A DNA stretch of 64,000 nucleotides from a virus. A program made the translations under genes and the position numbers. Location: the UHGV virus genome UHGV-0086135. One strand, written 5' to 3'. The notes beneath the pieces are model-generated. The model was given only the letters and a program-made list of their open reading frames with translations, had not been told where the DNA came from and searched no databases. Shown one piece after another: positions 3,758 through 46,350 of this stretch (position 1 is its first letter; each line of letters begins with the position of its first letter).

Positions 3758-3796
3758 GTACTTTATTAGAGCTCTTGAAAAAGAGTGCAAAAAAGT

Positions 3797-3825
3797 GTTT
3801 ACTTCTGCTTTAAACATGATACTAT
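3797..3825 (+). promoter_or_regulatory. T4-type early promoter upstream of motA
   Basis: GTTTAC, 17-bp spacer, TACTAT; GGAG Shine-Dalgarno downstream. Confidence 0.65.
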
Positions 3826-3862
3826 AGACCTATCAAATAAATGAACTGAAACGGAGATTAAA

Positions 3863-4498
3863 ATGTCTAAAGTAACTTACATCATCAAAGCTTCTAACGA
3901 TGTTCTGAATGAAAAAACTGCTGCGATTTTAATTACCATTGCTAAGAAAGATTTCATTACAGCTGCAGAAGTTCGTGAGGTGCATCCAGATTTAGGTAAC
4001 GCAGTAGTTAATAGTAATATTGGGGTATTGATTAAAAAAGGTCTGGTAGAGAAATCTGGTGATGGATTAATCATTACAGGAGAAGCTCAGGATATTATTT
4101 CAAATGCAGCAACTTTATATGCACAGGAAAATGCTCCTGAACTACTGAAAAAACGAGCAACTCGTAAAGCTCGTGAGATTACTTCCGATATGGAAGAAGA
4201 TAAAGACCTTATGCTAAAACTTTTAGATGAAAATGGATTTGTTCTTAAAAAGGTTGAAACTTACCGCAGTAACTATCTTGCTATTTTAGAAAAACGCACT
4301 CATGGAATTCGCAATTTTGAAATTAATAACAATGGAAATATGCGAATTTTTGGATACAAAATGATGGAACATCATATTCAGAAATTTACTGATATCGGAA
4401 TGTCATGTAAAATCGCTAAAAACGGTAATGTGTATCTTGACATTAAACGCTCGGCAGAAAACATTGAAGCGGTAATCACCGCAGCATCTGAACTGTGA
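3863..4498 (+). CDS. motA: middle-transcription activator MotA (211 aa)
   Basis: Sequence MSKVTYIIKASNDVLNEKTA... matches recalled T4 MotA over its full length; own early promoter. Confidence 0.95.
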   Translation: MSKVTYIIKASNDVLNEKTAAILITIAKKDFITAAEVREVHPDLGNAVVNSNIGVLIKKGLVEKSGDGLIITGEAQDIISNAATLYAQENAPELLKKRATRKAREITSDMEEDKDLMLKLLDENGFVLKKVETYRSNYLAILEKRTHGIRNFEINNNGNMRIFGYKMMEHHIQKFTDIGMSCKIAKNGNVYLDIKRSAENIEAVITAASEL

Positions 4499-4508
4499 GG
4501 AATAAATA

Positions 4509-4838
4509 ATGAACAAGTTAGAAATTGTTAATGAACTTCGTCGTTGTGCAGAACCCACTCAAGAGGGGTGGGATATCTGGTATCATGGAGCTTATCTTGG
4601 AACTATCGTAAAGATTAAGACTGGTAAATACATGATTATTCGTGAAAGTAAAGATGCTCCAGTAGGTATTCGCAATAATTTTATGGCGGCGATAAGTTCA
4701 TTTACGGATGCAGCTTACGAAATTTACCTTGCCGATTATAAAGAATTCCAGGAATCTCAACCAGTTATTCGCTCAATTGGTGTTAACAAAGCTCAACAGA
4801 AAACTCTGTGGCAGCGTATTAAAGGATGGTTTAAATGA
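4509..4838 (+). CDS. hypothetical early protein (109 aa)
   Basis: ORF track; ATG after GAGG. Confidence 0.55.
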
Positions 4839-5296
4839 ACCCATTTATTAATCGTTTAAAAATGCTGAATGTTCCTTTATCTCGTGAAACTCCAGAAAGT
4901 CTTGTTGAAAAATTTAAAGCACATGGTTATAAATGCACAGAAGAAGATATTCTGAAAGAAGTTCCTGAAATCTGTTGGCAGACCGCATACTGGGATGAAA
5001 ACCAAAAGTATCAACGACGAATTGTTTGTGCCGCCAACCGTTTTAAATTAAAAGATGGACGAACTCTTGTTATTCCAGGTGCTCGTCATTATTCTAAAGA
5101 TATGGCAGAAGTTTTAGATGTAGTTAAACCCCAATTAGTTACTCAGCAAGTTTGTGATGATGACCAAGGGTTTATTGATCAGTATAGCAATTACTGGACA
5201 CGTGAAGAAGCAATGATTATTGCAACTTACGCCGGACAAGTACGTATTGAACGCGGTGGTAGTGAAAAAGAACTTTACTCTGAGGACCTTTACTAA
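4835..5296 (+). CDS. hypothetical early protein (153 aa)
   Basis: ORF track; ATGA coupling to upstream ORF. Confidence 0.55.
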
Positions 5297-5592
5297 TGAA
5301 TATTAAAAAGTTTCAAATTGATGGAATTAAGAATCAAATCCAGGCGTTGGAATATGCCAATAAAATGATGTCAACTAATTGGGGAATTTATGCCAATGAA
5401 CCGGCATTTCAGTTCTGTGATATGGAATTCACCAAAAAGCTCGTAGGAAAAGATTATGTATGTCCATTTAGTTCTCCAGTAAATGGAATGTTAAAACCTG
5501 CTTTACGCGATCTTTATATTGCGATGAACGAAGAAATGATAAAAGAACTAAAACGTCAACTAAAGGTTATTCAATTTGGCCAGGGAAATTAA
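5296..5592 (+). CDS. hypothetical early protein (98 aa)
   Basis: ORF track; TAATG coupling. Confidence 0.5.
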   Translation: MNIKKFQIDGIKNQIQALEYANKMMSTNWGIYANEPAFQFCDMEFTKKLVGKDYVCPFSSPVNGMLKPALRDLYIAMNEEMIKELKRQLKVIQFGQGN

Positions 5593-5794
5593 TTCAAAAT
5601 CTGATTATTTTAATTCTCTTAATGATAAAGATAAAAATTTAATAAGACATTTTATCGTTGAGATGGGATATACTGACACACGTGATTTAAGAGAACATAT
5701 ATTTGAATGTGGTGTAGCTAAAAAGTTTTCATTCACATGCAATTGTTTAAGAGAGGTAATTCAGCACTATGAACAATTTAGTCGCAAAACATAA
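5576..5794 (+). CDS. possible small ORF, start uncertain (track start is TTG; first in-frame ATG near 5663)
   Basis: ORF track only; weak ribosome-binding context. Confidence 0.25.
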   Translation: MAREINSKSDYFNSLNDKDKNLIRHFIVEMGYTDTRDLREHIFECGVAKKFSFTCNCLREVIQHYEQFSRKT

Positions 5795-5877
5795 TTTTAA
5801 TAAAGCTTCTGTCCATAAGGATAAGAAGAAAGCGTTTAAAGAATCTAATCGCAAACAGAAACATAAGGGGAAGGTCT

Positions 5878-6156
5878 ATGATTATTGATTCTCAGTCTGT
5901 GGTTCAATACACAATTAAAATTGATATTCTAGAAAAGCTATACAAGTTTCTACCAAATTTATACCACTCAATTGTTAATGAATTAGTTGAAGAACTACAT
6001 CTTGGGAATAATGATTTCTTGATTGGAACTTATAAAGATAACTCAAAAGCAGGATATTTTTACGTAATTCCAGCTCCAGGAAAAAGTATTGATGATGTAT
6101 TAAAAACTATAATGATTTATGTCCTTGATTATGAAATTGAAGATTATTTCGAATGA
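5878..6156 (+). CDS. arn: Arn, anti-restriction inhibitor of McrBC (92 aa)
   Basis: Sequence MIIDSQSVVQYTIKIDILEKLYKFLPNLYHS... matches recalled T4 Arn; position next to asiA. Confidence 0.85.
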   Translation: MIIDSQSVVQYTIKIDILEKLYKFLPNLYHSIVNELVEELHLGNNDFLIGTYKDNSKAGYFYVIPAPGKSIDDVLKTIMIYVLDYEIEDYFE

Positions 6157-6305
6157 GTCATAATCTTGAAAAAGTAATCGAGCATAATGTAGCTCAGGAA
6201 CGTAAGTCGTTCAAGGAATTCGTAGAAAAAATTTTTGAAGAAAATACCACAGACCAGTTTACAAATCAAACGTCTGATGATATTATAGCAAAGTCAACTA
6301 ATTGA
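6153..6305 (+). CDS. small acidic ORF (50 aa), hypothetical
   Basis: ATGA overlap with arn stop; hand-translated MSHNLEKVIEHNVAQERKSFKEF... Confidence 0.3.
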   Translation: MSHNLEKVIEHNVAQERKSFKEFVEKIFEENTTDQFTNQTSDDIIAKSTN

Positions 6306-6317
6306 GTGGTATAGTTA

Positions 6318-6590
6318 ATGAATAAAAATATTGATACAGTTCGTGAAATTATTACTGTTGCGTCTATTTTGATTAAATTTTCCAGAGAAGATATTGTTGA
6401 GAATCGTGCTAATTTTATTGCATTTCTGAATGAGATTGGAGTAACGCATGAAGGTAGAAAGTTAAATCAGAATTCATTCCGTAAAATTGTTTCTGAATTA
6501 ACTCAAGAAGATAAGAAAACCCTCATCGACGAATTCAACGAGGGTTTTGAGAGTGTATATCGATATCTAGAGATGTATACAAACAAATAA
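6318..6590 (+). CDS. asiA: anti-sigma70 factor AsiA (90 aa)
   Basis: Sequence MNKNIDTVREIITVASILIKFSREDIVENRANFIAFLNEIGVTHEG... matches recalled T4 AsiA. Confidence 0.95.
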   Translation: MNKNIDTVREIITVASILIKFSREDIVENRANFIAFLNEIGVTHEGRKLNQNSFRKIVSELTQEDKKTLIDEFNEGFESVYRYLEMYTNK

Positions 6591-7247
6591 TTATTTAGCC
6601 CTTCCTAATATTCTGGCCGCCTGAGCACATATTGATTCAAGGCGGTCATTACTTATATGATCATTTCTATACCAGTACATGGTTATTGTTCCAGCATAGA
6701 TATTATCCAAATTAAAATATGGACAACTGTACATGTAATTTATTTCTGGAGTAGGCTTTTTAGTTGGTAAAAAAGCAAATTTTGAGTTTGAATAATAATG
6801 ACGTCCATTTAAATGAACTGCATATTCATCCATAGTTTTATCAACAGGATATCCTCCAAGTGATTTTTCACTTATTGTTGAAGGTAATTTTCCTTCATAT
6901 GCTATAATATCAACAAAATAGTTTAAGTTTTTAGGGCGGAAAGAATACACCGCACTAAAGTCTGCCTCAGATGATATATGAACTATCTGGAGTTGTTCCA
7001 GGGCGACAGATTCAAAGCGTGCATTTCTTTCCTTTTCAATAATTTCACTGTATGTTTCATACTTTGATTGCTTATAGTACTCAAAGAAACTATCTCCCCT
7101 ATACCAAACAATCGCCATTATAAACAAAAGAATTACGACAGCTACCCGGGAAGCAAGAACTTTCCCGGTAGCGTTATCTTTGAACAAGCGATCTAGAACA
7201 CCAAACAGAATACCAGAGGGCGAAAATGATATTCTAGGTGCTGTCAT
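6591..7247 (-). CDS. t: holin T (218 aa)
   Basis: Sequence ...PRISFSPSGILFGVLDRLFKDNATGKVLASRVAVVILLFIMAIVWYRGD... matches recalled T4 holin; single TM domain. Confidence 0.95.
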   Translation of the reverse strand: MTAPRISFSPSGILFGVLDRLFKDNATGKVLASRVAVVILLFIMAIVWYRGDSFFEYYKQSKYETYSEIIEKERNARFESVALEQLQIVHISSEADFSAVYSFRPKNLNYFVDIIAYEGKLPSTISEKSLGGYPVDKTMDEYAVHLNGRHYYSNSKFAFLPTKKPTPEINYMYSCPYFNLDNIYAGTITMYWYRNDHISNDRLESICAQAARILGRAK

Positions 7248-15800: not shown

Positions 15801-16756
15801 ATAACTTCTTCATTTGGACGAATGTTTGAATTAGTCGTTATGATACGTAAACGTGCTTTACTATCCCCGTCAAATAATCTCCATAATTTCTCATTATCAT
15901 CAAACATCAAGAAACCGTCAATCGATGTACGGCCTTCAATGGAATGAGTTCCAACTTCTTGTACTGAAGTTGTTTCATCATATGTCGTGACAATTGTATG
16001 ATAAAGTGGATTTAATTTATCTAAATCAACGAAATTAATAATATCGCCATGATTAGCAAATCTCGGAAGTTTAATATTAATCGGCGCTGCGGAAGTAAAT
16101 CTACGCACGATAAAATCATTAGATTGTGCTTGATATGCAGTCGATGGAGTAACAATTGCAGCTTCTCTGCTATAATCAGCAACATACATTTGCCACAAAC
16201 GATTATTAAAAATGAATATCATCTGTGACTTTGGATGAGTCATTAAAACTGAACGTACTTGTTCACCTCTAAAATTAACAATGCTCTGATTTGAAGAACT
16301 TATTTTAACCTGATTTATACCAGGTTTTCCACCGATATCTTGAATTATTACTGTTTCTCCATCGAGCGGAGAAGGTGGTAAAGTAAACTCAATGTCATTA
16401 CCAACTGACGTATCTACTGAAATTGCTTCTCCGGATTTTAATTGATACGGTCCAGATGATACGGTTGTATATACAGCATCAGTACGTAATGCTTTCCAAC
16501 GAATTCTATTAAAACTTCCAGCAGGTTTTGGAATATTATCCGTTGCTGCCCAAAAACGATTATTATAAATGATTACAAAATCTTTTAAATATCCACGAGT
16601 TGGATCATATTGTTGAACTGTGTTTTCTTGAATTAAGTAATCAACGTTAACACCGTCAGTTCCTACGGTACGATCAGCTAAAGCTACGTTGATTATTTTA
16701 TCGCCACCTGCGTCCAGACCATCTTCTGCTCTGAACTTTCTTTTAATCTCGGCCAT
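12887..16756 (-). CDS. 34: long tail fiber proximal subunit gp34 (1289 aa)
   Basis: Same length as T4 gp34; N-terminus MAEIKRKFRAEDGLDAGGDKIINVALADRTVG; internal repeated motifs; late promoter upstream. Confidence 0.95.
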   Translation of the reverse strand: MAEIKRKFRAEDGLDAGGDKIINVALADRTVGTDGVNVDYLIQENTVQQYDPTRGYLKDFVIIYNNRFWAATDNIPKPAGSFNRIRWKALRTDAVYTTVSSGPYQLKSGEAISVDTSVGNDIEFTLPPSPLDGETVIIQDIGGKPGINQVKISSSNQSIVNFRGEQVRSVLMTHPKSQMIFIFNNRLWQMYVADYSREAAIVTPSTAYQAQSNDFIVRRFTSAAPINIKLPRFANHGDIINFVDLDKLNPLYHTIVTTYDETTSVQEVGTHSIEGRTSIDGFLMFDDNEKLWRLFDGDSKARLRIITTNSNIRPNEEVMVFGANNGTTQTIELQLPTNISVGDTVKISMNYMRKGQTVKIKAAGEDKIASSVQLLQFPKRSEYPPEAEWVTVQELVFNGETNYVPVLQLAYIEDSDGKYWVVQQNVPTVERVDSLNNSTRARLGVIALATQAQANVDLENSPQKELAITPETLANRTATETRRGIARIATTAQVNQNTTFSFADDLIITPKKLNERTATETRRGVAEIATQQETNTGTDDTTIITPKKLQARQGSETLSGIVTFVSTAGATPASSRELNGTNVYNKNTNNLVVSPKALDQYKATPTQQGAVILAVESEVIAGQSQEGWANAVVTPETLHKKTSTDGRIGLIEIATQSEVNTGTDYTRAVTPKTLNDRKATESLSGIAEIATQVEFDAGVDDTRISTPLKIKTRFDSTNRTSVVALSGLVESGTLWDHYTLNILEANETQRGTLRVATQVEAAAGKLDNVLITPKKLLGTKSTEAQEGVIKVATQSETVTGTSANTAVSPKNLKWIVQSEPTWAATTLVRGFVKTSSGSITFVGNDTVGSTQSLELYEKNSYAVSPYELNRVLANYLPLKAKAADANLLDGLDSSQFIRRDIAQTVNGSLTLTKQTNLSAPLVSSSTATFGGSVSANSTLTISNTGTATQLIFEKGPQTGTNPAQTMTVKVWGNQFSGESDTTRSTVFEVSDETSSHFYSQRNKAGNITFNINGTVTPINVNASGTLNANGVATFGNSVTANGEFIGKSPNAFRAINGNYGFFIRNAGNDTYFMLTAAGDQTGGFNALRPLSINNQSGQVTIGESLIIAKGATINSGGLTVNSRIRSQGVKTPDLYTRAPTSDTVGFWSIDINDSATYNQFPGYFKMVEKTNEVTGLPYLERGEEVKSPGTLTQFGNTLDSLYQDWITYPTTPEARTTRWTRTWQKTKNSWSSFVQVFDGGNPPQPSDIGAIPSDNGIIGNLTIRDFLRIGNVRIIPDPVNKTVKFEWIE

Positions 16757-16790
16757 TCTCCCGGGCTCCTATTGTGTTTTCAATAATAAG

Positions 16791-16798
16791 TATTTATA
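16791..16798 (-). promoter_or_regulatory. late promoter TATAAATA upstream of gene 34
   Basis: Exact motif on minus strand about 35 nt upstream of the gene 34 ATG. Confidence 0.65.
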
Positions 16799-16801
16799 CT
16801 T

Positions 16802-16829
16802 GTTTACTTTAAGATTTGGAGTATATAAT
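16802..16829 (+). promoter_or_regulatory. early promoter upstream of rnh
   Basis: GTTTAC, 16-bp spacer, TATAAT; divergent from the gene 34 late promoter. Confidence 0.55.
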
Positions 16830-16858
16830 AGAAATCTCACTAATTGAACGAGGTTCAT

Positions 16859-17776
16859 ATGGATTTAGAAATGATGCTGGATGAAGATTACAAAGAAGGA
16901 ATTTGCTTAATTGACTTTAGTCAAATTGCGCTTTCAACTGCTCTGGTAAACTTCCCAGATAAAGAAAAAATTAATTTATCAATGGTTCGTCATTTGATAT
17001 TGAATTCAATTAAGTTTAATGTCAAAAAAGCAAAAACTCTTGGATACACTAAAATTGTATTGTGTATTGATAACGCGAAATCTGGATACTGGCGTCGTGA
17101 TTTCGCTTATTATTATAAGAAAAACCGCGGAAAAGCACGAGAAGAATCTACTTGGGACTGGGAAGGTTATTTTGAATCCAGTCATAAAGTTATAGATGAA
17201 TTGAAAGCTTATATGCCATACATCGTTATGGATATTGATAAGTATGAAGCAGATGACCATATTGCTGTTCTTGTTAAAAAGTTCTCTTTAGAAGGACATA
17301 AGATTTTAATCATTTCGTCGGATGGTGACTTTACTCAACTTCACAAATACCCAAATGTTAAGCAATGGTCACCGATGCACAAGAAATGGGTTAAAATTAA
17401 AAATGGTTCTGCTGAAATTGACTGCATGACTAAAATCCTTAAAGGTGACAAAAAGGATAACGTTGCTTCAGTTAAAGTACGATCTGACTTTTGGTTTACC
17501 AGAGTTGAAGGTGAACGAACTCCTTCAATGAAAACCTCTATTGTTGAAGCTATTGCTAATGACCGCGAGCAAGCTAAGGTGCTTCTCACAGAATCTGAAT
17601 ATAATCGTTATAAAGAAAATTTAGTTCTAATTGATTTTGATTATATTCCTGATAATATTGCTTCAAACATTGTGAATTACTATAATTCATATAAATTACC
17701 ACCGCGTGGCAAAATTTATTCATATTTTGTAAAAGCGGGTCTTTCTAAATTAACTAATAGCATTAATGAATTTTGA
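16859..17776 (+). CDS. rnh: RNase H / 5'-3' exonuclease (305 aa)
   Basis: Inner ATG of track ORF (track start TTG); MDLEMMLDEDYKEGICLIDFSQIAL... matches recalled T4 RNase H. Confidence 0.95.
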   Translation: MDLEMMLDEDYKEGICLIDFSQIALSTALVNFPDKEKINLSMVRHLILNSIKFNVKKAKTLGYTKIVLCIDNAKSGYWRRDFAYYYKKNRGKAREESTWDWEGYFESSHKVIDELKAYMPYIVMDIDKYEADDHIAVLVKKFSLEGHKILIISSDGDFTQLHKYPNVKQWSPMHKKWVKIKNGSAEIDCMTKILKGDKKDNVASVKVRSDFWFTRVEGERTPSMKTSIVEAIANDREQAKVLLTESEYNRYKENLVLIDFDYIPDNIASNIVNYYNSYKLPPRGKIYSYFVKAGLSKLTNSINEF

Positions 17777-17784
17777 GGTGAATA

Positions 17785-18054
17785 ATGGCTAAAAAAGAAA
17801 TGGTTGAATTTGATGAAGCTATCCATGGCGAAGACTTGGCTAAATTTATTAAAGAAGCATCTGATCATAAACTGAAAATTTCTGGTTATAATGAATTGAT
17901 TAAAGATATTCGAATTCGTGCCAAAGATGAACTTGGCGTTGATGGTAAGATGTTTAATCGTCTGTTAGCTTTGTATCATAAAGATAACCGTGATGTGTTT
18001 GAAGCTGAAACTGAAGAGGTAGTTGAACTTTATGACACAGTTTTCTCTAAATGA
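17785..18054 (+). CDS. dsbA: dsDNA-binding protein DsbA (89 aa)
   Basis: ORF track; size and position between rnh and 33 as in T4. Confidence 0.85.
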   Translation: MAKKEMVEFDEAIHGEDLAKFIKEASDHKLKISGYNELIKDIRIRAKDELGVDGKMFNRLLALYHKDNRDVFEAETEEVVELYDTVFSK

Positions 18055-18370
18055 TATTCGTCCGGTCGATGAGACCGGTCTTTCAGAAAAAGAACTTTCA
18101 ATTAAGAAAGAAAAGGATGAAATTGCAAAGCTTCTTGACCGTCAAGAAAATGGATTTATTATTGAAAAAATGGTAGAAGAGTTTGGAATGAGTTATCTTG
18201 AAGCTACAACAGCATTCTTAGAAGAAAATTCTATTCCTGAAACTCAATTTGCTAAATTTATTCCTTCGGGTATAATTGAAAAAATTCAGTCAGAAGCTAT
18301 CGACGAAAATCTTTTACGTCCTTCTGTTGTTCGTTGCGAAAAAACTAATACATTAGATTTTCTACTATGA
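18032..18370 (+). CDS. 33: late transcription co-activator gp33 (112 aa)
   Basis: Inner ATG (track start TTG); MTQFSLNDIRPVDETGLSEKELSIKKEKDEIAKLLD matches recalled T4 gp33. Confidence 0.9.
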   Translation: MTQFSLNDIRPVDETGLSEKELSIKKEKDEIAKLLDRQENGFIIEKMVEEFGMSYLEATTAFLEENSIPETQFAKFIPSGIIEKIQSEAIDENLLRPSVVRCEKTNTLDFLL

Positions 18371-19020
18371 TTAAACTCCGCATGCCTGCTGGTGGTGAAA
18401 GATATATTGATGGTAAATCAGTTTATAAATTATACTTAATGATAAAACAACATATGAATGGAAAGTATGATGTAATTAAGTATAATTGGTGCATGCGGGT
18501 GTCTGATGCCGCTTATCAAAAGCGAAGGGATAAGTATTTTTTTCAGAAGTTATCAGAAAAATATAAATTAAAGGAACTTGCTTTAATCTTTATAAGCAAT
18601 CTGGTTGCTAACCAAGATGCTTGGATTGGTGACATCTCTGACGCTGATGCGCTTGTGTTTTATCGTGAATATATCGGACGCTTAAAGCAAATTAAATTTA
18701 AGTTTGAAGAAGATATTCGCAACATTTATTATTTTAGTAAAAAAGTTGAAGTTTCTGCTTTTAAAGAAATTTTTGAATATAATCCAAAAGTTCAATCAAG
18801 TTATATTTTTAAACTACTTCAATCGAATATAATTTCGTTTGAGACGTTTATCTTGCTTGATTCGTTTTTAAATATAATCGATAAACATGATGAACAGACT
18901 GATAATTTAGTCTGGAATAATTATTCTATAAAGTTAAAGGCTTATAGAAAAATTTTAAATATTGATTCACAGAAAGCTAAAAGTGTTTTTATTGAAACTG
19001 TGAAATCTTGCAAGTATTAA
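18367..19020 (+). CDS. 59: helicase loader gp59 (217 aa)
   Basis: Sequence MIKLRMPAGGERYIDGKSVYKLYLMIKQHMNGKYD... matches recalled T4 gp59. Confidence 0.95.
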   Translation: MIKLRMPAGGERYIDGKSVYKLYLMIKQHMNGKYDVIKYNWCMRVSDAAYQKRRDKYFFQKLSEKYKLKELALIFISNLVANQDAWIGDISDADALVFYREYIGRLKQIKFKFEEDIRNIYYFSKKVEVSAFKEIFEYNPKVQSSYIFKLLQSNIISFETFILLDSFLNIIDKHDEQTDNLVWNNYSIKLKAYRKILNIDSQKAKSVFIETVKSCKY

Positions 19021-19021
19021 T

Positions 19022-19045
19022 TGCTTATTATAAATAGATTATAAT
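19022..19045 (+). promoter_or_regulatory. candidate MotA-dependent middle promoter for gene 32
   Basis: MotA-box-like TGCTTAT about 11-12 bp upstream of TATAAT. Confidence 0.4.
19029..19036 (+). promoter_or_regulatory. late promoter TATAAATA upstream of gene 32
   Basis: Exact TATAAATA on + strand. Confidence 0.55.
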
Positions 19046-19059
19046 TATCTCACTGACCA

Positions 19060-19119
19060 GCTATGAGGTCATACATCGTCATAGCACCAACTGTTAATTA
19101 AATTAAAAAGGAAATAAAA
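19060..19119 (+). promoter_or_regulatory. gene 32 5' leader, probable autogenous translational operator
   Basis: AU-rich leader with repeated UUAAA-like elements directly upstream of the gene 32 ATG. Confidence 0.4.
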
Positions 19120-38887: not shown

Positions 38888-39156
38888 TGTTTGTTGTTCA
38901 CACTATTTATGAAAATGAAGGTAATACTACACGTGATTACGGTCACGTAAATCAATTTTTTAGATGCAATCCAGAATTCCGAGCTCAAAAAGACGAACGA
39001 ATTTTTAAAAAATGTGTAGAGCAAGGTTTCATTTACGTTAAGCACTGGATGCAAGGAAATAAAGTTAGAACTACATATCATAGGTCTTTGCCTGAGCTTA
39101 ATGATGAATTGATTTATAATAGAGCTGTAAACCAAACCTTGAAGGATGAGCAATGA
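38887..39156 (+). CDS. hypothetical protein (89 aa)
   Basis: ORF track. Confidence 0.45.
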   Translation: MFVVHTIYENEGNTTRDYGHVNQFFRCNPEFRAQKDERIFKKCVEQGFIYVKHWMQGNKVRTTYHRSLPELNDELIYNRAVNQTLKDEQ

Positions 39157-40613
39157 TTCTTAAAATTCTGAATGAAATAGCATCTATTGGATCAACTAAG
39201 CAGAAGCAAGCAATTCTTGAAAAGAATAAAGATAATGAATTGCTTAAACGAGTATATCGTCTGACTTATTCTCGTGGGCTACAGTATTATATCAAGAAAT
39301 GGCCTAAACCTGGTATTGCTACCCAGAGTTTTGGAATGCTGACTATTACCGATATGCTTGACTTCATTGAATTCACGTTAGCTACTCGGAAATTAACTGG
39401 CAATGCAGCAATTGAGGAATTAACTGGATATATCACTGATGGTAAAAAGGATGATGTTGAAGTTTTGCGTCGAGTTATGATGCGAGATCTTGAATGCGGT
39501 GCTTCAGTATCTATCGCAAATAAAGTTTGGCCAGGTTTAATTCCTGAACAACCTCAAATGTTGGCAAGTTCTTATGATGAAAAAGGCATTAGTAAGAATA
39601 TTAAATTTCCAGCTTTTGCACAGTTAAAAGCAGATGGAGCTCGGTGTTTTGCTGAAGTCCGAGGTGATGAATTAGATGATGTTCGTCTTTTATCACGAGC
39701 TGGTAATGAATATCTAGGATTAGATCTTCTTAAGGAAGAGTTAATCAAAATGACCGCTGAAGCTCGCCAGATTCATCCAGAAGGCGTGTTAATTGATGGC
39801 GAATTGGTATACCATGAGCAAGTTGAAAAAGAGCCAGAAGGCCTAGATTTTCTTTTTGATGCTCCTGAAAATAGTAAAGTTAAAGAGTTTGCCGAAGTAG
39901 CTGAATCGCGTACTGCTTCTAATGGAATCGCCAATAAATCTTTAAAGGGAACTATTTCAGAAAAAGAAGCTCAATGTATGAAGTTTCAGGTCTGGGATTA
40001 TGTCCCGTTAGTAGAAATATACGGTCTTCCAGCATTTCGTTTGAAGTATGATGTACGTTTTTCTAAACTAGAACAAATGGCATCAGGATATGATAAAGTA
40101 ATTTTAATTGAAAACCAGATAGTAAATAACCTAGATGAAGCTAAGGTAATTTATAAAAAGTATATTGACCAAGGTCTTGAAGGTATTATTCTCAAAAATA
40201 TCGATGGATTGTGGGAAAATGCTCGTTCAAAAAATCTCTATAAATTTAAAGAAGTAATTGATGTTGATTTAAAAATTGTAGGAATTTATCCTCACCGTAA
40301 AGACCCTACTAAAGCAGGTGGATTTATTCTTGAATCAGAGTGTGGAAAAATTAAAGTAAATGCTGGTTCAGGCTTAAAAGATAAAGCCGGTGTAAAATCG
40401 CATGAACTTGACCGTACTCGCATTATGGAAAACCAAAATTATTATATTGGAAAAATTCTAGAGTGCGAATGCAACGGTTGGTTAAAATCTGATGGCCGCA
40501 CTGATTACGTTAAATTATTTCTTCCGATTGCGATTCGTTTACGTGAAGATAAAACTAAAGCTAATACATTCGAAGATGTATTTGGTGATTTTCATGAGGT
40601 AACTGGTCTATGA
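39153..40613 (+). CDS. 30: ATP-dependent DNA ligase gp30 (486 aa)
   Basis: Sequence MILKILNEIASIGSTKQKQAILEKNKDNELLKRVYRLTYSRGLQYYIKKWPKPG... matches recalled T4 ligase; adenylation motif KADGAR. Confidence 0.97.
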   Translation: MILKILNEIASIGSTKQKQAILEKNKDNELLKRVYRLTYSRGLQYYIKKWPKPGIATQSFGMLTITDMLDFIEFTLATRKLTGNAAIEELTGYITDGKKDDVEVLRRVMMRDLECGASVSIANKVWPGLIPEQPQMLASSYDEKGISKNIKFPAFAQLKADGARCFAEVRGDELDDVRLLSRAGNEYLGLDLLKEELIKMTAEARQIHPEGVLIDGELVYHEQVEKEPEGLDFLFDAPENSKVKEFAEVAESRTASNGIANKSLKGTISEKEAQCMKFQVWDYVPLVEIYGLPAFRLKYDVRFSKLEQMASGYDKVILIENQIVNNLDEAKVIYKKYIDQGLEGIILKNIDGLWENARSKNLYKFKEVIDVDLKIVGIYPHRKDPTKAGGFILESECGKIKVNAGSGLKDKAGVKSHELDRTRIMENQNYYIGKILECECNGWLKSDGRTDYVKLFLPIAIRLREDKTKANTFEDVFGDFHEVTGL

Positions 40614-40798
40614 AAGCTTACTTAGAAACAATTGTCGTTGCTCAAAAAGAAGGTGGAGATGTTTCTACTTCTGTATCACAAATTATGATTGAATTTATAG
40701 ATGCATATGCTTATAATAAATTCACAGAAACATTTGATGCTTATGAAAAAGGTCCAAAGTTTGAAATATATCGTACTCTCTTACCAATAGATTATTAA
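40610..40798 (+). CDS. hypothetical protein (62 aa)
   Basis: ORF track; followed by hairpin terminator. Confidence 0.45.
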   Translation: MKAYLETIVVAQKEGGDVSTSVSQIMIEFIDAYAYNKFTETFDAYEKGPKFEIYRTLLPIDY

Positions 40799-40820
40799 AG
40801 GCCTTCGGGCCTTTAATTTT
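40799..40820 (+). terminator. hairpin terminator before alt
   Basis: AGGCC-TTCG-GGCCT followed by a T-rich tract. Confidence 0.5.
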
Positions 40821-40827
40821 ATAAATA
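40820..40827 (+). promoter_or_regulatory. late promoter TATAAATA upstream of alt
   Basis: Exact TATAAATA about 20 nt upstream of the alt Shine-Dalgarno. Confidence 0.6.
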
Positions 40828-40850
40828 GAATAAACACTAGAGAGGATATG

Positions 40851-42944
40851 ATGGAACTCATTACAGAATTATTTGACGAAGATACTACTCTTCCGATTAC
40901 AAACTTAAATCCAAAGAAGAAAATACCGCAAATTTTTTCAGTTCATGTTGATGGCGCAATTGAACAACCAGGCTTTCGTTTATGTACCTATACATCTGGA
41001 GGTGATACTAATCGCGATTTAAAGATGGGCGATAAAATGATGCATATTGTTCCTTTTACATTAACTGCTAAAGGTTCAATTGCTAAATTAAAAGGTCTCG
41101 GTCCAAGCCCAATTAATTATATCAATTCAGTTTTTACAGTTGCAATGCAAACGATGCGTCAGTATAAAATTGATGCCTGTATGCTCCGTATTCTTAAGTC
41201 TAAAACTGCTGGTCAAGCTCGACAAATTCAACTTATTGCTGATAGACTTATCCGCAGTCGTTCAGGTGGCAGATACGTCCTTCTTAAGGAACTCTGGGAT
41301 TACGATAAAAAGTACGCATATATTCTTATACATCGCAAAAATGTATCGCTAGAAGACATTCCAGGAGTTCCGGAAATTAGTACCGAGCTCTTTACTAAAG
41401 TTGAATCGAAAGTCGGTGATGTTTATATCAATAAAGATACTGGAGCTCAAGTAACTAAAAATGAGGCAATTGCAGCATCTATTGCACAAGAAAATGATAA
41501 ACGTTCTGACCAAGCTGTAATCGTTAAAGTTAAAATTTCCCGTAGAGCAATTGCACAAAGTCAGTCATTAGAATCTTCTAGATTTGAAAGTGAATTATTC
41601 CAGAAGTATGAATCTACCGCAGCTAATTTCAATAAACCTGCTACAGCTCCTTTAATTCCCGAAGCAGAAGAAATGAAGCTTGGAATTAATTCATTAGCTT
41701 CTAAAACTAAGGCAGCAAAAATTATTGCTGAAGGAACTGCAGATGAACTTCATTATGACTATAAATTCTTTTCAAAAAGTGAGGTTAATGAAGTTTCTGA
41801 AAAAATTAAAGATGTAATTCTTAATGCGATTAAAAATGAACCAACTACTTCAATAAAATGTTTAGAGAAATACGCAACAGTTGTTAATCAATTATTTGAA
41901 GAATATAAAGATAACTGGCTTGATAAACATAATAAAACTCGTAAAGGACAAACAGATGAAGTCTGGGAAGAAATAACTAAAAATTCCTGGAACGCAGCAA
42001 AAACTAAATTCCTCAAAAGAATGATTTATAGTTTTTCTGGAATTGGTGCAGGTCCAATGATTGATATTACTATTGCTCGTGATGGTTCTAAATATACTCC
42101 ATCACAAAAGCGCGGCATTAGAGAGTATTGTGGTTCAGGATATACTGACATCAATAATCTTCTTTTAGGTCGCTACAATCCAGAACGATATGAGGTAATG
42201 AGTGAAAAAGAAATTGAATCTGCGATAAATAATTTAGATTCAGCCTTTGAAAATGGTGACCGTATACCAGAAGGCATTACAGTTTATCGTGCTCAAAGCA
42301 TGACTGCTCCTATATACGAAGCACTAGTTAAAAATAAAGTGTTCTATTTCAGAAATTTTGTATCTACTTCTTTAACTCCTATCATTTTTGGACGTTTTGG
42401 AATTACGCATGCTGGTATTGGTCTTTTAGAACCAGAAGCTCGTAATGAATTAACAGTTGATAAAAATGAAGAAGGAATAACTATTAATCCAAATGAAATA
42501 AGAGCGTATAAAGAAAATCCTGAATACGTTAAAGTTCAAATAGGATGGGCAATTGATGGAGCTCATAAAGTTAATGTTGTATATCCAGGAAGTCTCGGAA
42601 TAGCAACAGAAGCTGAAGTTATTCTACCACGCGGATTGATGGTCAAAGTTAATAAAATAACTGATGCTTCTAATAATGACGGAACAACATCTAATAATAC
42701 AAAACTCATTCAAGCTGAAGTTATGACTACGGAAGAACTCACCGAATCGGTAATTTATGACGGTGACCGTCTAATGGAAACTGGTGAAGTAGTTGCAATG
42801 ACAGATGATATTGAAATAGAAGACAGAGTTGACTTTGCATCATTTGTTTCATCAAATGTTAAACAAAAAGTAGAATCATCTCTTGGAATTATTGCATCTT
42901 GCATAGATATTGCAAACATGCCTTACAAGTTCGTTCAAGGATAA
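40851..42944 (+). CDS. alt: ADP-ribosyltransferase Alt (697 aa)
   Basis: N-terminus MELITELFDEDTTLPITNL...GFRLCTYTSGGDTNRDLKMGDKMMHIVPF matches recalled T4 Alt; ART-like motifs (R in VYRAQ, FVSTSL, EAEVIL); late promoter upstream. Confidence 0.9.
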   Translation: MELITELFDEDTTLPITNLNPKKKIPQIFSVHVDGAIEQPGFRLCTYTSGGDTNRDLKMGDKMMHIVPFTLTAKGSIAKLKGLGPSPINYINSVFTVAMQTMRQYKIDACMLRILKSKTAGQARQIQLIADRLIRSRSGGRYVLLKELWDYDKKYAYILIHRKNVSLEDIPGVPEISTELFTKVESKVGDVYINKDTGAQVTKNEAIAASIAQENDKRSDQAVIVKVKISRRAIAQSQSLESSRFESELFQKYESTAANFNKPATAPLIPEAEEMKLGINSLASKTKAAKIIAEGTADELHYDYKFFSKSEVNEVSEKIKDVILNAIKNEPTTSIKCLEKYATVVNQLFEEYKDNWLDKHNKTRKGQTDEVWEEITKNSWNAAKTKFLKRMIYSFSGIGAGPMIDITIARDGSKYTPSQKRGIREYCGSGYTDINNLLLGRYNPERYEVMSEKEIESAINNLDSAFENGDRIPEGITVYRAQSMTAPIYEALVKNKVFYFRNFVSTSLTPIIFGRFGITHAGIGLLEPEARNELTVDKNEEGITINPNEIRAYKENPEYVKVQIGWAIDGAHKVNVVYPGSLGIATEAEVILPRGLMVKVNKITDASNNDGTTSNNTKLIQAEVMTTEELTESVIYDGDRLMETGEVVAMTDDIEIEDRVDFASFVSSNVKQKVESSLGIIASCIDIANMPYKFVQG

Positions 42945-42947
42945 ATC

Positions 42948-45005
42948 ATGGAACTTATTACAGAATTATTTGACGGCGCTTCGGCGCCGGTTGTTAACTT
43001 AAATCCTAAGCATAAAATACCTCAAATTTTTGCTATTCAAGCCGGCGAAGAAAGTGTACTTCCTGGATTTAGATTTTGTACATACACCTCCGGTGGTGAT
43101 ACAAATAAAAACGTTAAGCCAGGCGATAAAATGATGCATATCGTAATGATAGGTGTTAATGAGAAACTATCATTAGTTAAACTTAAAAACTTGGGTGGAA
43201 ATCCAATTGGTGTCATTAATGCGGTTTTTGATACTGCTCTTCAAACAATGAAACAGTATAAAATTGACGCATGCCTATTCCGCGTACTAAAAAGTAAAAC
43301 AAATGGCGCTGCTCGTCAGATGCAAGTTATTGCTGACCGTTTAGTACGTACTAAAGGAGCAGGTCGATATGTTCTTTTAAAGGAAATCTGGGATTACGAT
43401 AAAAAGTATGCATATATTATGGTTTACCGTAAAAATGCCAATTTAGAAGACATTCCAGGTGTACCTCCTATTTCAACTGAGTTATTCACAAAAGTTGAAT
43501 CAAAGGTTGGTGATGTTTATGTAGATGTTAAAACAGGTAATGCTGTTCCTAAAGCTGTTGCTGTTGCTGCTTCTATTGCTTTAGAAAATGATAAGCGCAC
43601 GGATCAAGCTGTTATTCAGAAAACTAAAATTAGTCGTCGATTAGCAGCACAAGCTCAATATTCTACTGTCGATGCTTCTCTACATGGTGATAGCTTCGCT
43701 GCTAAGAAATATCAAGAGTTTGAATCTAAAGTTCCGGTATATAAAGCAGAAGGACCAATGAACTCTGGCGTTATTCAGATTGGTTCCAACTTCGGCAAAG
43801 GAGCTATCGGTGGTATGAGAAGTGCTTCTCGTTTTAAATCTAATGATTATGAACTAGAAAGCTTCCGAAATCATATTGCATTGGCCCATGCACGTTTACG
43901 TGATCCGTCTATCAGACTGCAGAGCGATATAACACATCAAGGTTTTCAAGAATATTTAAAGAATAAAGAATTTTTTGATTATAAAACCGATAAAATTTTG
44001 AGCGATCTAGCTGACATTAATATTTCTAATAGCTTTGATGTTATTAAGAAAATTATCAATGATTTAGTTAAAGGTTCTAAAGCCACACCAGACGAAAAGG
44101 TAGCTATTATTCAATTTGTCATGAATGGCATTTATAAATTGATTAATGAATCTGCTGCTCAGGCATATGAATACGCAAGCACCGAAGTAACTCCAAAAGG
44201 ACTGACTCAGGCTGAGTCTGATGTAATTGAAGATTATTGTGCAGATTCATATGTTGAAATGAACTCGTTCCTCTTGGGTAAACCAGATTCTACCCGTGAA
44301 GAATACATTGAACGAGCTATTAAACACATCGAGACGCTGGATTCTGCATTCGCCAAAGGATCAGTTCTTCCTCCAGGAACTACGCTTTATCGTGGGCAAG
44401 AAGTTACTTTTAAAACTTTACGTCATAATATTGAAAATAAAATGTTCTATTTCAAGAACTTCGTATCCACGTCGCTTAAACCAAATATCTTCGGTGAGCA
44501 TGGTAAAAACTATATGGCTCTAGATGATTCCGGCGCAGTATTTTCTGGTGAAGGAGAAGGTTCTGTTGATGCTGAAGATTTAATGCATATGGGTAGTCAT
44601 TCTGCATATGCTAATGAAGATGCTGAAGCTAGCGTAGGTATGGTAATTAAAGGGGCTGAGCGAATCAAAGTTATCGTTCCAGGTCATTTATCAGGATTTC
44701 CATCAGAAGCTGAAGTTATTCTACCGCGTGGAATTTTGTTGAAGATTAATAAAGTAAGCACGTACATGATGAAAGAAACTGCCTATAACAAGTATCTAAT
44801 CGAAGGCACAATCGTTCCTCCTTCTGAACAATTAGAAGAATCGGTATATGATGGCGATCATCTAATGGAAACTGGTGAAGTTCGTCCAATGGCTGGGTTT
44901 AATCAATTCCTTGTAGAAGAATCAAAAGAAGAGGAAACTGAAGTTTCTCAAATCTTGGCTTCTTTGGTTAACATCAACGGAATGTCTAAAAAGTTCAAGA
45001 TGTAG
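42948..45005 (+). CDS. Alt-like ADP-ribosyltransferase paralog (685 aa)
   Basis: N-terminal ~230 aa closely similar to upstream Alt; diverged middle; conserved ART-like motifs (LYRGQ, FVSTSL, EAEVIL); 3-nt gap to alt. Confidence 0.85.
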   Translation: MELITELFDGASAPVVNLNPKHKIPQIFAIQAGEESVLPGFRFCTYTSGGDTNKNVKPGDKMMHIVMIGVNEKLSLVKLKNLGGNPIGVINAVFDTALQTMKQYKIDACLFRVLKSKTNGAARQMQVIADRLVRTKGAGRYVLLKEIWDYDKKYAYIMVYRKNANLEDIPGVPPISTELFTKVESKVGDVYVDVKTGNAVPKAVAVAASIALENDKRTDQAVIQKTKISRRLAAQAQYSTVDASLHGDSFAAKKYQEFESKVPVYKAEGPMNSGVIQIGSNFGKGAIGGMRSASRFKSNDYELESFRNHIALAHARLRDPSIRLQSDITHQGFQEYLKNKEFFDYKTDKILSDLADINISNSFDVIKKIINDLVKGSKATPDEKVAIIQFVMNGIYKLINESAAQAYEYASTEVTPKGLTQAESDVIEDYCADSYVEMNSFLLGKPDSTREEYIERAIKHIETLDSAFAKGSVLPPGTTLYRGQEVTFKTLRHNIENKMFYFKNFVSTSLKPNIFGEHGKNYMALDDSGAVFSGEGEGSVDAEDLMHMGSHSAYANEDAEASVGMVIKGAERIKVIVPGHLSGFPSEAEVILPRGILLKINKVSTYMMKETAYNKYLIEGTIVPPSEQLEESVYDGDHLMETGEVRPMAGFNQFLVEESKEEETEVSQILASLVNINGMSKKFKM

Positions 45006-45034
45006 TTTACAAGTCCCTCGTGTTGTGTTATAAT
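45005..45034 (+). promoter_or_regulatory. T4-type early promoter
   Basis: GTTTAC, 18-bp spacer, TATAAT; twin of cassette at 29032. Confidence 0.55.
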
Positions 45035-45065
45035 AATCTTACTGACATAACATGAGGAACACAAA

Positions 45066-45356
45066 ATGAAATCTTCTTTACGCTTTTTAGGTCAAGAACT
45101 TGTAGTTGAAGGCGTTATTCCTGCTGATAACGCTTTTAATGAAGCAGTTTATGATGAATTTATCAAAATTTTTGGAACAGATAAAAAGTTCGGAATTTTT
45201 CCTTCTGAAAATTTTTCAAAGCCAGAACAGACTGAAAGCATTTTCCAAGGTGTAGTAACAGGTAAATTTGAGTCAGAAGCTCCGGTAAAAATTGAAGTTT
45301 ATATTGAAGACAGTTTAGTCGCTTCAGTTGCTGCTTTTATTTCATTCCGTAAATAA
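45066..45356 (+). CDS. hypothetical early protein (96 aa)
   Basis: ORF track; own early promoter. Confidence 0.5.
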   Translation: MKSSLRFLGQELVVEGVIPADNAFNEAVYDEFIKIFGTDKKFGIFPSENFSKPEQTESIFQGVVTGKFESEAPVKIEVYIEDSLVASVAAFISFRK

Positions 45357-45361
45357 AAATA

Positions 45362-45381
45362 TGGGGACCAAAAGGTCCCCA
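45362..45381. terminator. bidirectional hairpin terminator between the alt region (+) and gene 54 (-)
   Basis: GGGGACC-AAAA-GGTCCCC flanked by A-rich and T-rich tracts; convergent transcription units meet here. Confidence 0.6.
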
Positions 45382-45384
45382 TTG

Positions 45385-46350
45385 TTATATTGCTCCTAAT
45401 ATTTTACTTTGCGAGTTGACAATTCCCGTCATAGTATTAATGTTTGAAATGCTTCCAGCAGTTCCTCCTAATCTACTAAGTCGTGAAAGCGAATTAGATA
45501 ATCCAGTAACACCTCCACTATTTCCGAGAACGCTTTGAATACCGTTTATAGCAGCAGATTCAAGCCATTCAAGGGCAGCTTGTCTATCAACTGCTCCAGC
45601 CTGCATGACTCTATACGCAAAAGTAACATCAAATGTAGTTATTTGGTTATCTCCATCATATGATAACTCAGGAGCGCTCACTGACACTGGAATGCATCCG
45701 GTGAACATCACTGCAGTATGAGGTAATCCATTACGAGCATGAAGATTAACCTGAATATCTGCCTCGACATCTTGTGGCAAAGCACGCAGTCCAGTTACTG
45801 GGTCTTGAACAGCGTTAACCCAGTCTTGCATTGCACGATAGTTACAAGCTTCTGAATCCATTCTAAATGAAATAACCAAAGGGTCTAATTCTCTCCCAGT
45901 TATACGAATATTAGGAGAGTTATAGTTCCAGTCAGTTTCATAGGATAATCTATTCTCTGGCATTTTTACAGAATATATCATCAATCCAGACGAGTTATAT
46001 GCCATGTTAAAGAAGTCAATTAAATATGTACCAACTGTAAATGAGCCCAATAAACTTTGAACTGTACGTTGACTCATGGCACCAATAAGATATTTACTAA
46101 CCCCTGATTTTCTTATCAGTTTTTGTGTGCCAGCAGTAATTAGCGTGGTAATTCCCTGATTAATATCGCCTTGAGACAATCCTAACCAGTCTGAATTTAG
46201 ACCCAAATTATTATAAGAAAAGTTGCTAATTGAACTTATCAACGAAGAGCTTTTAGTTGATGGAGTTGTCGCAAAAACGCAGCTAAACATATTATTACGT
46301 TGGAAATCTGCGTTTATTGCTTGATTATTAAATTCCTCTAAAGAATACAT
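45385..46350 (-). CDS. 54: baseplate tail-tube initiator gp54 (321 aa)
   Basis: Sequence MYSLEEFNNQAINADFQRNNMFSCVFATTPSTKSSSLI... matches recalled T4 gp54. Confidence 0.95.
   Translation of the reverse strand: MYSLEEFNNQAINADFQRNNMFSCVFATTPSTKSSSLISSISNFSYNNLGLNSDWLGLSQGDINQGITTLITAGTQKLIRKSGVSKYLIGAMSQRTVQSLLGSFTVGTYLIDFFNMAYNSSGLMIYSVKMPENRLSYETDWNYNSPNIRITGRELDPLVISFRMDSEACNYRAMQDWVNAVQDPVTGLRALPQDVEADIQVNLHARNGLPHTAVMFTGCIPVSVSAPELSYDGDNQITTFDVTFAYRVMQAGAVDRQAALEWLESAAINGIQSVLGNSGGVTGLSNSLSRLSRLGGTAGSISNINTMTGIVNSQSKILGAI

Follow-up and report, generated by a model that had tools for sequence, protein, structure and literature searches.

Two intact Alt-type ADP-ribosyltransferase genes in the T2/T6-type alt region of a Tequatrovirus

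The alt region of virus genome UHGV-0086135, analysed here as a stretch of 64,000 nucleotides (the window), carries two intact genes of the Alt family of ADP-ribosyltransferases (ARTs) in tandem. The first, ORF1, corresponds to alt in its T2/T6-type allele; the second, ORF2, is a complete paralogue of which phage T4 retains only a remnant. Most likely both products travel in the phage head, where gp21 trims them, enter the host by injection and work there as ARTs specific for arginine, the two on different targets. We consider it probable that this explanation holds as a whole, the locus being a Tequatrovirus alt region of the usual T2/T6 type. The tandem arrangement of alt and its paralogue is itself known and has been annotated before.

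The gene pair and its expression signals

The window comes from a genome of Tequatrovirus (T-even phage) type, and the gene order at this locus, 30, alt.1, ORF1, ORF2, alt.-3, 54, where 30 is the DNA ligase gene, is common to T4, T2 and T6. A sequence-only reading had described two adjacent frames of 697 and 685 aa, 3 nt apart; the coordinates agree, with the spacer reading ATC. An alignment of the two proteins spans their whole length at 41% identity (E = 7e-156). PF03496, the ART domain, is matched in both (E = 2e-37 and 6e-20) and phrog_802 runs over the full length of both, which bears out their description as tandem Alt-family ART genes. The locus has the following features:

40797..40814, + strand: terminator-like hairpin AAAGGCC-TTCG-GGCCTTT, read from the sequence, directly 3' of alt.1 and 5' of the alt late promoter
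40820..40827, + strand: T4-type late promoter motif TATAAATA, 23 nt before the ORF1 ATG
40840..40846, + strand: ORF1 ribosome-binding site GAGAGGA, its spacing supporting the ATG at 40851 over 40848
40851..42944, + strand: ORF1, alt, T2/T6-type allele, 697 aa
42937..42941, + strand: ORF2 Shine-Dalgarno AAGGA, within the last ORF1 codons and 6 nt before the ORF2 ATG
42948..45005, + strand: ORF2, intact alt paralogue (T6 'alt.-2', T2 EcT2_00208, RB32ORF194c), 685 aa
45006..45034, + strand: sigma-70/T4-early-like promoter for alt.-3, TTTACA-17-TATAAT with TG, strong (11/12 matches)

The late promoter that the sequence-only reading placed ahead of the first copy is represented by the TATAAATA motif, the sole copy between 40500 and 45500, with none inside the gene pair. 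Across the whole window the motif occurs 12 times against 8.4 expected; since it is a bare 8-mer that shows no enrichment, the call rests on position and not on statistics. Both genes seem to depend on one late promoter and a coupled ribosome-binding site: the promoter would give a bicistronic message, on which translation of ORF2 would be coupled through the AAGGA inside the end of ORF1. The hairpin upstream went uncalled in a terminator pattern scan because its T-run is short; a conserved terminator upstream of alt was noted by Nolan 2006 (PMC1524935). At the other end, the alt.-3 promoter, whose sequence is kept in T4, marks the end of the coding content of the late alt transcription unit. 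The listing of open reading frames places the ORF1 start at 40848, giving MMELITE; we prefer 40851, as a GAGG Shine-Dalgarno lies 5 nt before it and T4 Alt begins with MELITE.

T4 Alt (NP_049811 / P12726) is the positional orthologue of ORF1. Their overall identity of 70% is a mosaic: about 99% over the N-terminal 245 aa and about 85-100% over the C-terminal 100 aa or so, with parts below 30%. Catalytic motifs and gp21 sites are alike in the two, but the centre of ORF1, ART domain included, has diverged from T4 Alt and represents a different, T2/T6-type allele. Against T2 and T6 alt, ORF1 shows 13-17 non-synonymous differences.

ORF2 and T4 Alt share only 42% identity. The sequence-only reading could not place this second copy among T-even frames and took identity with a characterised conserved T-even protein as counting against its view; the copy is indeed conserved and already known in T-even phages, being the same gene as T6 AXN58232 ('alt.-2; also similar to alt', 685 aa) and T2 EcT2_00208 (BBF63359), each with 98% identity. 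Both counterparts lie in the same place, directly downstream of alt, and show no material difference. RefSeq names the type 'Alt-like RNA polymerase ADP-ribosyltransferase'. Homologues at least 95% identical to ORF2 occur in 397 phage records, and the pair of alt and an ORF2-type gene in about 80% of the phage's relatives, T2 and T6 included.

Catalytic domains and divergence of the two proteins

ORF1 is laid out as a propeptide (aa 1-6, ending at ITE-6), an N-domain to about aa 240, a variable helical region and an ART domain; the LTE-632 site and a 65-aa acidic C-propeptide follow. The layout of ORF2 is similar:

42948..42965, + strand: predicted N-propeptide MELITE (gp21 site ITE-6)
42966..43661, + strand: Alt N-domain, aa 7-238, alpha/beta; candidate virion-incorporation module
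43662..44192, + strand: variable helical region, aa 239-415, <20% identity to ORF1 and T4 Alt
44193..44816, + strand: ART domain, aa 416-623
44391-44393, + strand: R482, in LYRGQ
44466-44474, + strand: S507-T-S509
44706-44714, + strand: E587-A-E589; F584 is the ARTT aromatic residue
44832..44840, + strand: predicted C-terminal gp21 site LEE-631, homologous to LTE-619 of T4 Alt
44841..45002, + strand: predicted C-propeptide of 54 aa, pI 4.6, with a conserved YDGDxLMETGE motif

The ART-like motifs noticed in both copies form intact R / S-T-S / E-x-E series. In ORF1 the residues are R480 (VYRAQ), S505-T-S507 (FVSTSL) and E587-A-E589 (EAEVIL). The second copy, for which loss of the catalytic Glu or Arg would have spoken against an enzyme, has R482 and E587/E589 in place. 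R482, S507, S509, E587 and E589 (ORF2 numbering) are kept in 57-58 of the 59 family representatives, a set that includes both window ORFs; in the distant member P0071 the site is degenerate, reading K / S-C-S / N-x-E.

Structure prediction leads to bacterial ART toxins. A Foldseek search of the PDB with the AF2 model of ORF2 (pLDDT 82.7, pTM 0.80) returns Vis, C3, Certhrax, CDTa and VIP2 at E-values between 3.5e-7 and 1e-4; for the single-domain toxins the target TM-scores are 0.6-0.68. In the Alt family profile LYR, STS and ExE align onto Certhrax, and C3, VIP2 and iota toxin are matched as well. The predicted structure of ORF2 is a C3/VIP2-like ART fold. The toxins C3, VIP2, iota Ia, CDTa, Certhrax and Vis have this fold in common, together with an R / STS / (E or Q)-x-E site; they are delivered by binary-toxin pores or secretion, whereas the Alt proteins have gp21 propeptides and an N-domain specific to phages. 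The E-x-E form goes with arginine-specific ARTs. T4 ModA and ModB are small, of about 200 aa, and have neither N-domain nor propeptides. Like Alt they fall in the Alt/VIP2 clade of ARTs, whose active site is R-S-E; their expression is early and they do not enter the cell by injection (PMC5512222).

T4 Alt ADP-ribosylates Arg265 of the RNA polymerase alpha subunit and other host proteins, targets known for T4 Alt only (PMC2988021, PMC10468400). Both enzymes of the pair would use NAD and mono-ADP-ribosylate host proteins, probably on arginines, in the first seconds of infection. Their target sets may differ. As the sequence-only reading had it, the middle of the two proteins is diverged, identity falling below 20% between about aa 240 and 415. 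The ART domain of ORF2 has an acidic, Gly-rich insertion after STS (aa 518-554), modelled with low confidence, and at the ARTT loop F584 of ORF2 faces Ile in ORF1. The helical region, the insertion and the ARTT loop could each contribute to distinct targets; that the two enzymes have different substrates is inferred from this sequence divergence alone.

The alternative that survives best is that ORF2 supplies a redundant second dose of Alt, packaged and injected for the same targets (Arg265 of RNA polymerase alpha and others) in the interest of dosage or robustness. The two proteins do resemble each other in architecture, in the E-A-E-V-I-L-P-R-G motif and in processing sites; T4 manages without ORF2, and Alt itself is non-essential (PMC9026906). 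We nevertheless think it unlikely: besides the low overall identity and the differences just described, ORF1 and ORF2 fall into separate clades of a rough neighbour-joining tree (no bootstrap), and each is separately under strong purifying selection. For ORF1, dN/dS is 0.02-0.12. ORF2 is intact in all 6 genomes compared, with dN/dS of 0.03-0.06 in all four regions, about 0.05 overall, and dS up to 0.26. ORF2 also combines freely with either alt allele, as in SHFML-11, where it accompanies a T4-type alt.

The N-terminal domain, gp21 processing and delivery

[quoted passage not shown] Alt is present at about 40 copies per head and is injected with the DNA. Mass spectrometry of T4 Alt mapped two cuts, one at ITE-6 that takes off 6 residues from the N-terminus and one at LTE-619 that takes 63 from the C-terminus (PMC5694885); its cleavage is also described elsewhere (PMC9026906). 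The corresponding motifs are ITE-6 and LTE-632 in ORF1, and ITE-6 and LEE-631 in ORF2. The 6-aa MELITE propeptide context of ORF2 is conserved in the family: at the N-terminal site P1 is Glu in 56/59 members and P3 is Leu or Ile in 52/59, and at the C-terminal site these counts are 56/59 and 49/59. In the ORF2 model pLDDT falls below 50 at residues 630-633, which would fit an exposed linker. We propose that both proteins become part of the prohead core and that gp21 would trim both after ITE-6 and after the L-x-E at about 631/632, leaving mature proteins of about 69-70 kDa to be injected with the DNA; for ORF2, incorporation, cleavage and injection are all predictions.

The sequence-only reading had called the shared N-terminus of some 230 aa near-identical and suggested a capsid-targeting module. 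The N-terminal 238 aa of ORF1 and ORF2 are in fact 67% identical as protein and 70-72% as DNA, and only the first 31 nt reach 94%; the near-identity meant may be that of ORF1 with T4 Alt, about 99% over aa 1-245. A 230-aa CTS we reject, because the domain stays in mature T4 Alt (68.2 kDa, residues 7-619; PMC5694885); the known signals of T4 Alt are short propeptides. A role in virion incorporation does fit on comparative grounds. That reading is confirmed in part: the two intact ART genes, the diverged middle and the late promoter motif stand, the near-identical N-terminus does not.

The comparative support comes from the distribution of the domain. The whole phrog_802 model matches ORF1 (E = 2e-271) and its positions 2-242 match ORF2 (E = 4e-118); among relatives, PF26846 is a precomputed Pfam match to this domain. 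Among 1.84 billion proteins the N-domain occurs in 69 clusters, and in 69/69 the match begins within the first 50 residues or so. PF03496 accompanies it in 57/59 family representatives. A homologous N-terminal domain of about 170 aa is found in Ackermannviridae proteins (hhalign probability 91.9%, E = 7e-7; Foldseek E = 2.8e-8), and both versions start with L-x-E-[AV]-F-[DN]. Examples are phiEa2809 NW77_068, Marshall_113 and RC-2014 DA66_0048; a Dickeya phage XF4 protein with the domain is annotated 'unknown structural protein'. Unlike Alt, these proteins have no ART domain but variable C-terminal parts, for 531-1047 aa overall, and a Pfam scan of NW77_068 gave no match. Among the BFVD fold matches are proteins whose annotations name Zeta-toxin, deaminase and ParB/Srx domains. 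The Ackermannviridae homology and the constant N-terminal position suggest that the conserved N-domain may serve incorporation or ejection.

A second alternative, still less probable than a redundant dose, is that ORF2 is not injected and acts late in the producing cell, or is a structural or core component with secondary ART activity. ORF2 is apparently late-expressed, and a full-text literature search found no virion proteome, proteomic report of ORF2 in virions, biochemical study or other experimental characterisation of it. Yet ORF2 keeps the complete Alt N-domain and both gp21 contexts, which are conserved family-wide and used in T4 Alt, an architecture that the early intracellular ARTs ModA and ModB of T4 do not have (PMC5512222).

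In its broadest form, our preferred reading of ORF2 as an injected ART would mean that most Tequatroviruses inject two ARTs, the second with its own targets, and that the Alt N-domain is a general packaging or ejection adaptor. We offer this only tentatively, as possible rather than probable. If it is true, most Tequatroviruses differ from T4 in this respect, the count of three phage ARTs drawn from T4 (PMC10468400) is one short, lacking a fourth enzyme that the virion delivers, and the host targets of ORF2 ('Alt2') might include a defence or translation component. The adaptor would then be common to Ackermannviridae and possibly other phages, with cargo domains swapped onto it.

Loss of the second gene in T4

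In T4, ORF2 is interrupted by an out-of-frame deletion of 1,699 bp between two copies of a 9-nt microhomology, and by one frameshift; both are seen directly. In the window the two repeats lie at:

43287..43295, + strand: left copy of CTAAAAAGT, bounding the T4 deletion on the left
44986..44994, + strand: right copy of CTAAAAAGT, right edge of the T4 deletion

The deletion junction is found in 91 phage records. The T4 mini-ORFs alt.-1 and alt.-2 (NP_049810, NP_049809) reproduce aa 1-116 of ORF2 almost residue for residue, and their PHROGs match ORF2 (E = 5e-41 and 7e-39) far better than ORF1 (3e-21 and 2e-19). They are the pseudogene remnant of a complete ORF2-type paralogue. The T4 annotation regards them as the first part of alt, duplicated long ago, whereas the data here make them the remains of a whole paralogue. 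The T6 annotation of an 'apparent insertion in alt.-2' has the direction reversed: it is T4 that has a deletion.

Since T4 and some 90 related records have lost ORF2, the gene is not a general requirement, and the T4 lineage would exemplify a setting in which it is dispensable. That ORF2 in the window is itself degenerating, or already without catalytic activity, and heading for a T4-like pseudogene, for which one could cite these remnants and the degenerate site of P0071, is very improbable, the sequence evidence (an intact frame in 6/6 genomes, the low dN/dS at that dS, all catalytic residues and a confident model) being strongly opposed.

The duplication itself is old, as the separate clades indicate. 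Duplications of alt were already noted by Nolan 2006 (PMC1524935), and Dhakavirus has three tandem copies.

The alt locus and its expression signals

The window is part of a T-even (Tequatrovirus) genome; many E. coli and Shigella phages match it at ~97-99% identity, and no phage in the collection is identical to it. It contains two alt-type genes, ORF1 (alt itself) and ORF2 (a paralogue directly following it). The earlier, sequence-only reading was largely right about them: there are two ORFs, of 697 and 685 aa, with a gap of 3 nt, and the proteins align end to end with 41% identity (E = 7e-156). Its interpretation as an Alt-type tandem pair is right in kind, yet describes something already annotated.

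Features of the alt locus (coordinates in the window)
39153-40613, plus strand, DNA ligase gp30
40610-40798, plus strand, alt.1 (62 aa, PF24647)
40797-40814, plus strand, hairpin upstream of ORF1
40820-40827, plus strand, late promoter motif TATAAATA, upstream of ORF1
40851-42944, plus strand, ORF1 (697 aa)
42948-45005, plus strand, ORF2 (685 aa)
45006-45034, plus strand, sigma-70/early-type promoter (TTTACA-17-TATAAT with TG, 11/12 matches, the best of the region)
45066-45356, plus strand, alt.-3 (96 aa, DUF5498)
45361-45382, both strands, bidirectional terminator after alt.-3
Minus strand, gp54, gp48 and gp29, converging on the alt.-3 side of the locus

The start of ORF1 at 40851 is favoured by the position of a GAGG ribosome-binding site and by the N-terminus of T4 Alt, MELITE; the start at 40848 proposed by the automatic ORF call was dropped. 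At its upstream end, alt.1 has a 4-nt overlap with the ligase gene at the stop codon, and its product is a full-length match to Pfam PF24647, 'Phage blade protein' (E = 7.5e-29).

The late promoter announced for the first copy corresponds to the motif TATAAATA, and no second late motif occurs within 40500-45500. An AAGGA inside the last ORF1 codons stands 6 nt upstream of the ORF2 ATG. The early-type promoter adjoins the ORF2 stop codon and would drive alt.-3. In the simplest reading of these signals, both alt genes would form one late bicistronic unit and alt.-3 a separate early one. T4 mutants whose Alt.-3 is extended at the C-terminus evade CmdTAC, a defence system (PMC11618068). The terminator, called on both strands where alt.-3 and gene 54 converge, is a perfect 9-bp-stem hairpin, ATGGGGACC-AAAA-GGTCCCCAT.

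A conserved paralogue and its loss in T4

The likeness between the two proteins is uneven along their length.

Identity between the ORF1 and ORF2 proteins, from a three-way alignment including T4 Alt
aa 1-238: 55-75% per 40-column block, 67% overall
aa ~240-415: 5-20%
ART (ADP-ribosyltransferase) core: 30-48%, broken by a loop that does not align
C-terminal tail: 20-40%

The bodies are thus diverged as claimed, most of all over aa ~240-415, but the shared N-terminus cannot be called near-identical, with 67% identity in protein. In DNA, the two modules are 70-72% identical, reaching 94% in the first 31 nt only, which makes the duplication an old one.

ORF1 differs from the alt genes of T2 and T6 by just 13-17 non-synonymous changes, which identifies it as their allele of alt. 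Compared with T4 Alt, ORF1 is a mosaic: identity is ~99% over aa 1-245 and ~85-100% in the last ~100 aa, falling to 15-68% between them. The corresponding DNA is 95.5% identical up to 41657, unalignable to 42087 (codons ~270-412) and 80% identical thereafter.

The gene pair is known, with annotation, from T2, T6 and about 400 other phage records. T6 (MH550421) and T2 (AP018813) carry the same 697- and 685-aa pair, their second ORF being 98% identical to ORF2 in each case; the T6 record labels it 'alt.-2; apparent insertion in alt.-2; also similar to alt', and the RefSeq name for each of the two genes is 'Alt-like RNA polymerase ADP-ribosyltransferase'. A tblastn search gave 397 phage records with ORF2 at 95% identity or more, the next band lying below 60%. 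For ORF1, 293 records reach 95% or more, and 212, with the T4-type allele, lie at 60-80%. Either alt allele is found with ORF2, for example in SHFML-11; two alt alleles are in circulation and pair with ORF2 independently.

The locus is an ordinary genome feature, and alt duplications were noted already in 2006, when Nolan et al. described T4 alt.-1/alt.-2 and the extra ORFs of RB49 and 44RR as such (PMC1524935). Escherichia phage PSD2002, a Dhakavirus, has three tandem alt-like ORFs of 631, 693 and 707 aa (positions 1012-7124) between alt.1 and alt.-3, so that the alt slot of Tevenvirinae holds one to three paralogues. On a rough NJ tree, its copy 2 joins the clade of ORF1 and T4 Alt, while copies 1 and 3 fall elsewhere.

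Downstream of alt, T4 has alt.-1 (61 aa) and alt.-2 (67 aa), which together match ORF2 residues 1-116 almost exactly, save for a one-base frameshift; ORF2 is a far closer match than ORF1 to the PHROG families built from these fragments. The T4 sequence skips the stretch between window positions 43295 and 44986. The motif CTAAAAAGT occurs twice in the window, at 43287-43295 and 44986-44994, and once in T4 (~5105-5113 of the compared T4 segment). The T4 alt.-1/alt.-2 pair is a pseudogene, left by a 1,699-bp out-of-frame microhomology deletion between the CTAAAAAGT copies and by a 1-nt frameshift; intact ORF2 is consequently ancestral. By this junction, the T6 note of an 'apparent insertion in alt.-2' has the event the wrong way round, as the deletion is in T4. 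The T4 annotation 'duplication of the first part of alt' likewise misdescribes what is a deletion remnant of ORF2.

A probe for the T4 junction matched 91 records in one piece and ~395 in separate pieces, and hence ~80% of such phages retain ORF2. The model phage T4 is thus the odd one out, having lost an ART that is conserved, strongly constrained and probably injected, and that most related phages have retained.

ORF2 as a predicted packaged ADP-ribosyltransferase

ORF2 matches the ART family PF03496 with E = 6e-20. We aligned 59 representatives of its family, which came from searching 1.84 billion proteins exhaustively. The ART-like motifs reported for the second copy are intact on this alignment, and their catalytic residues are near-invariant: R482 (57/59), S507 (58/59), S509 (57/59), E587 (57/59) and E589 (58/59). 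The family profile places LYR, STS and ExE on the corresponding motifs of Certhrax, with further PDB matches to C3, VIP2 and iota toxin. The structure prediction that had been suggested as a check agrees: the best PDB matches of the AlphaFold2 model (pLDDT 82.7, pTM 0.80) are the ART toxins Vis, C3, Certhrax, CDTa and VIP2. In pairwise Nei-Gojobori comparisons of six genomes, ORF2 dN/dS is 0.03-0.06 with dS up to 0.26, and lowest in the N-terminal domain (0.00-0.03), indicating strong purifying selection on every region of the gene.

T4 Alt is a prohead-core protein of ~40 copies, injected together with the DNA (PMC9958956, PMC9026906). Mass spectrometry showed that the prohead protease gp21 removes 6 residues from its N-terminus (at ITE-6) and 63 from its C-terminus (at LTE-619), so that the mature form has a mass of 68.2 kDa (PMC5694885). 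Predicted gp21 sites are ITE-6 and LTE-632 in ORF1, ITE-6 and LEE-631 in ORF2. At each of the two sites, P1 is Glu in 56/59 family members; P3 is Leu or Ile in 52/59 and 49/59, respectively. Residues 630-633 of ORF2 form a low-confidence linker in the model. The predicted mature masses are 70.1 kDa for ORF1 and 69.1 kDa for ORF2, and both carry an acidic C-propeptide. Mainly from the conserved sites and propeptides, we infer that ORF2 would take the same route as Alt, being packaged, trimmed and injected.

The helical region (aa 239-415) is unlike between ORF1 and ORF2, and the loop from STS to ExE also differs, its ORF2 version (aa 518-554) being acidic, Gly-rich and of low model confidence. 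At the ARTT position, three residues before the first catalytic Glu, 45/59 family members have an aromatic residue or His; ORF2 has F584, ORF1 Ile and T4 Alt Pro. The ARTT loop of C3-like toxins contributes to substrate recognition. Given these three differences, it is plausible that ORF1 and ORF2 hit different targets. Most likely, the pair would encode two arginine ARTs, both made late, packaged in the head, trimmed by gp21 and injected, whose target recognition has diverged. If ORF2 has its own targets, a comparison of T4 with T2/T6 would be a ready-made system for finding them.

The N-terminal domain and its homologues in Ackermannviridae

The family of the Alt N-terminal domain (ORF2 aa 7-238) is small, with 69 clusters at 50% identity, and in all 69 the match begins within the first ~50 residues. 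An ART domain accompanies it in 57 of the 59 representatives scanned, both window ORFs included. The two exceptions are metagenomic proteins in which Pfam detects no ART: P0071 (485 aa) has a degenerate site, with LYK for LYR, S-C-S, and N-S-E for E-x-E, and P0072 (541 aa) has an unrelated C-terminus that matched nothing in the phage collection.

Against predicted viral structures, the domain finds non-ART matches in Ackermannviridae, vibriophages and the jumbo phage Atu_ph07. One of these matches, NW77_068 of phiEa2809 (927 aa; 16324-19107, minus strand), had zero hits in a Pfam scan. A search with it found its first ~190 residues in 356 phage records, almost all of them from ViI-like phages (Ackermannviridae), with 60-80% identity in 272; matches extend further in 15 records only. 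Ackermannviridae proteins with this N-terminus measure 531-1047 aa and vary in their C-termini; the one of Dickeya phage XF4 is annotated 'unknown structural protein'. The Alt domain and the Ackermannviridae domain (~170 aa) align over 157 columns with an hhalign probability of 91.9% (E = 7e-7) and a Foldseek E of 2.8e-8. Both groups of proteins open with L-x-E-[AV]-F-[DN], the ITE-6 cleavage context.

The proposal that the shared N-terminus targets proteins to the capsid thus gains comparative support from this homology as a putative virion-incorporation module, although the domain stays on the protein after maturation. The homology offers a testable handle on the loading and ejection of large proteins in myovirus heads, a question relevant also to T4 heads as protein-delivery vehicles. 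Fold matches of the domain in BFVD (E = 1e-5 to 5e-4), in which the matched part may not be N-terminal, include phage proteins annotated as a Zeta-toxin domain protein (Atu_ph07, 778 aa), a deaminase domain protein (840 aa) and ParB/Sulfiredoxin (319 aa).
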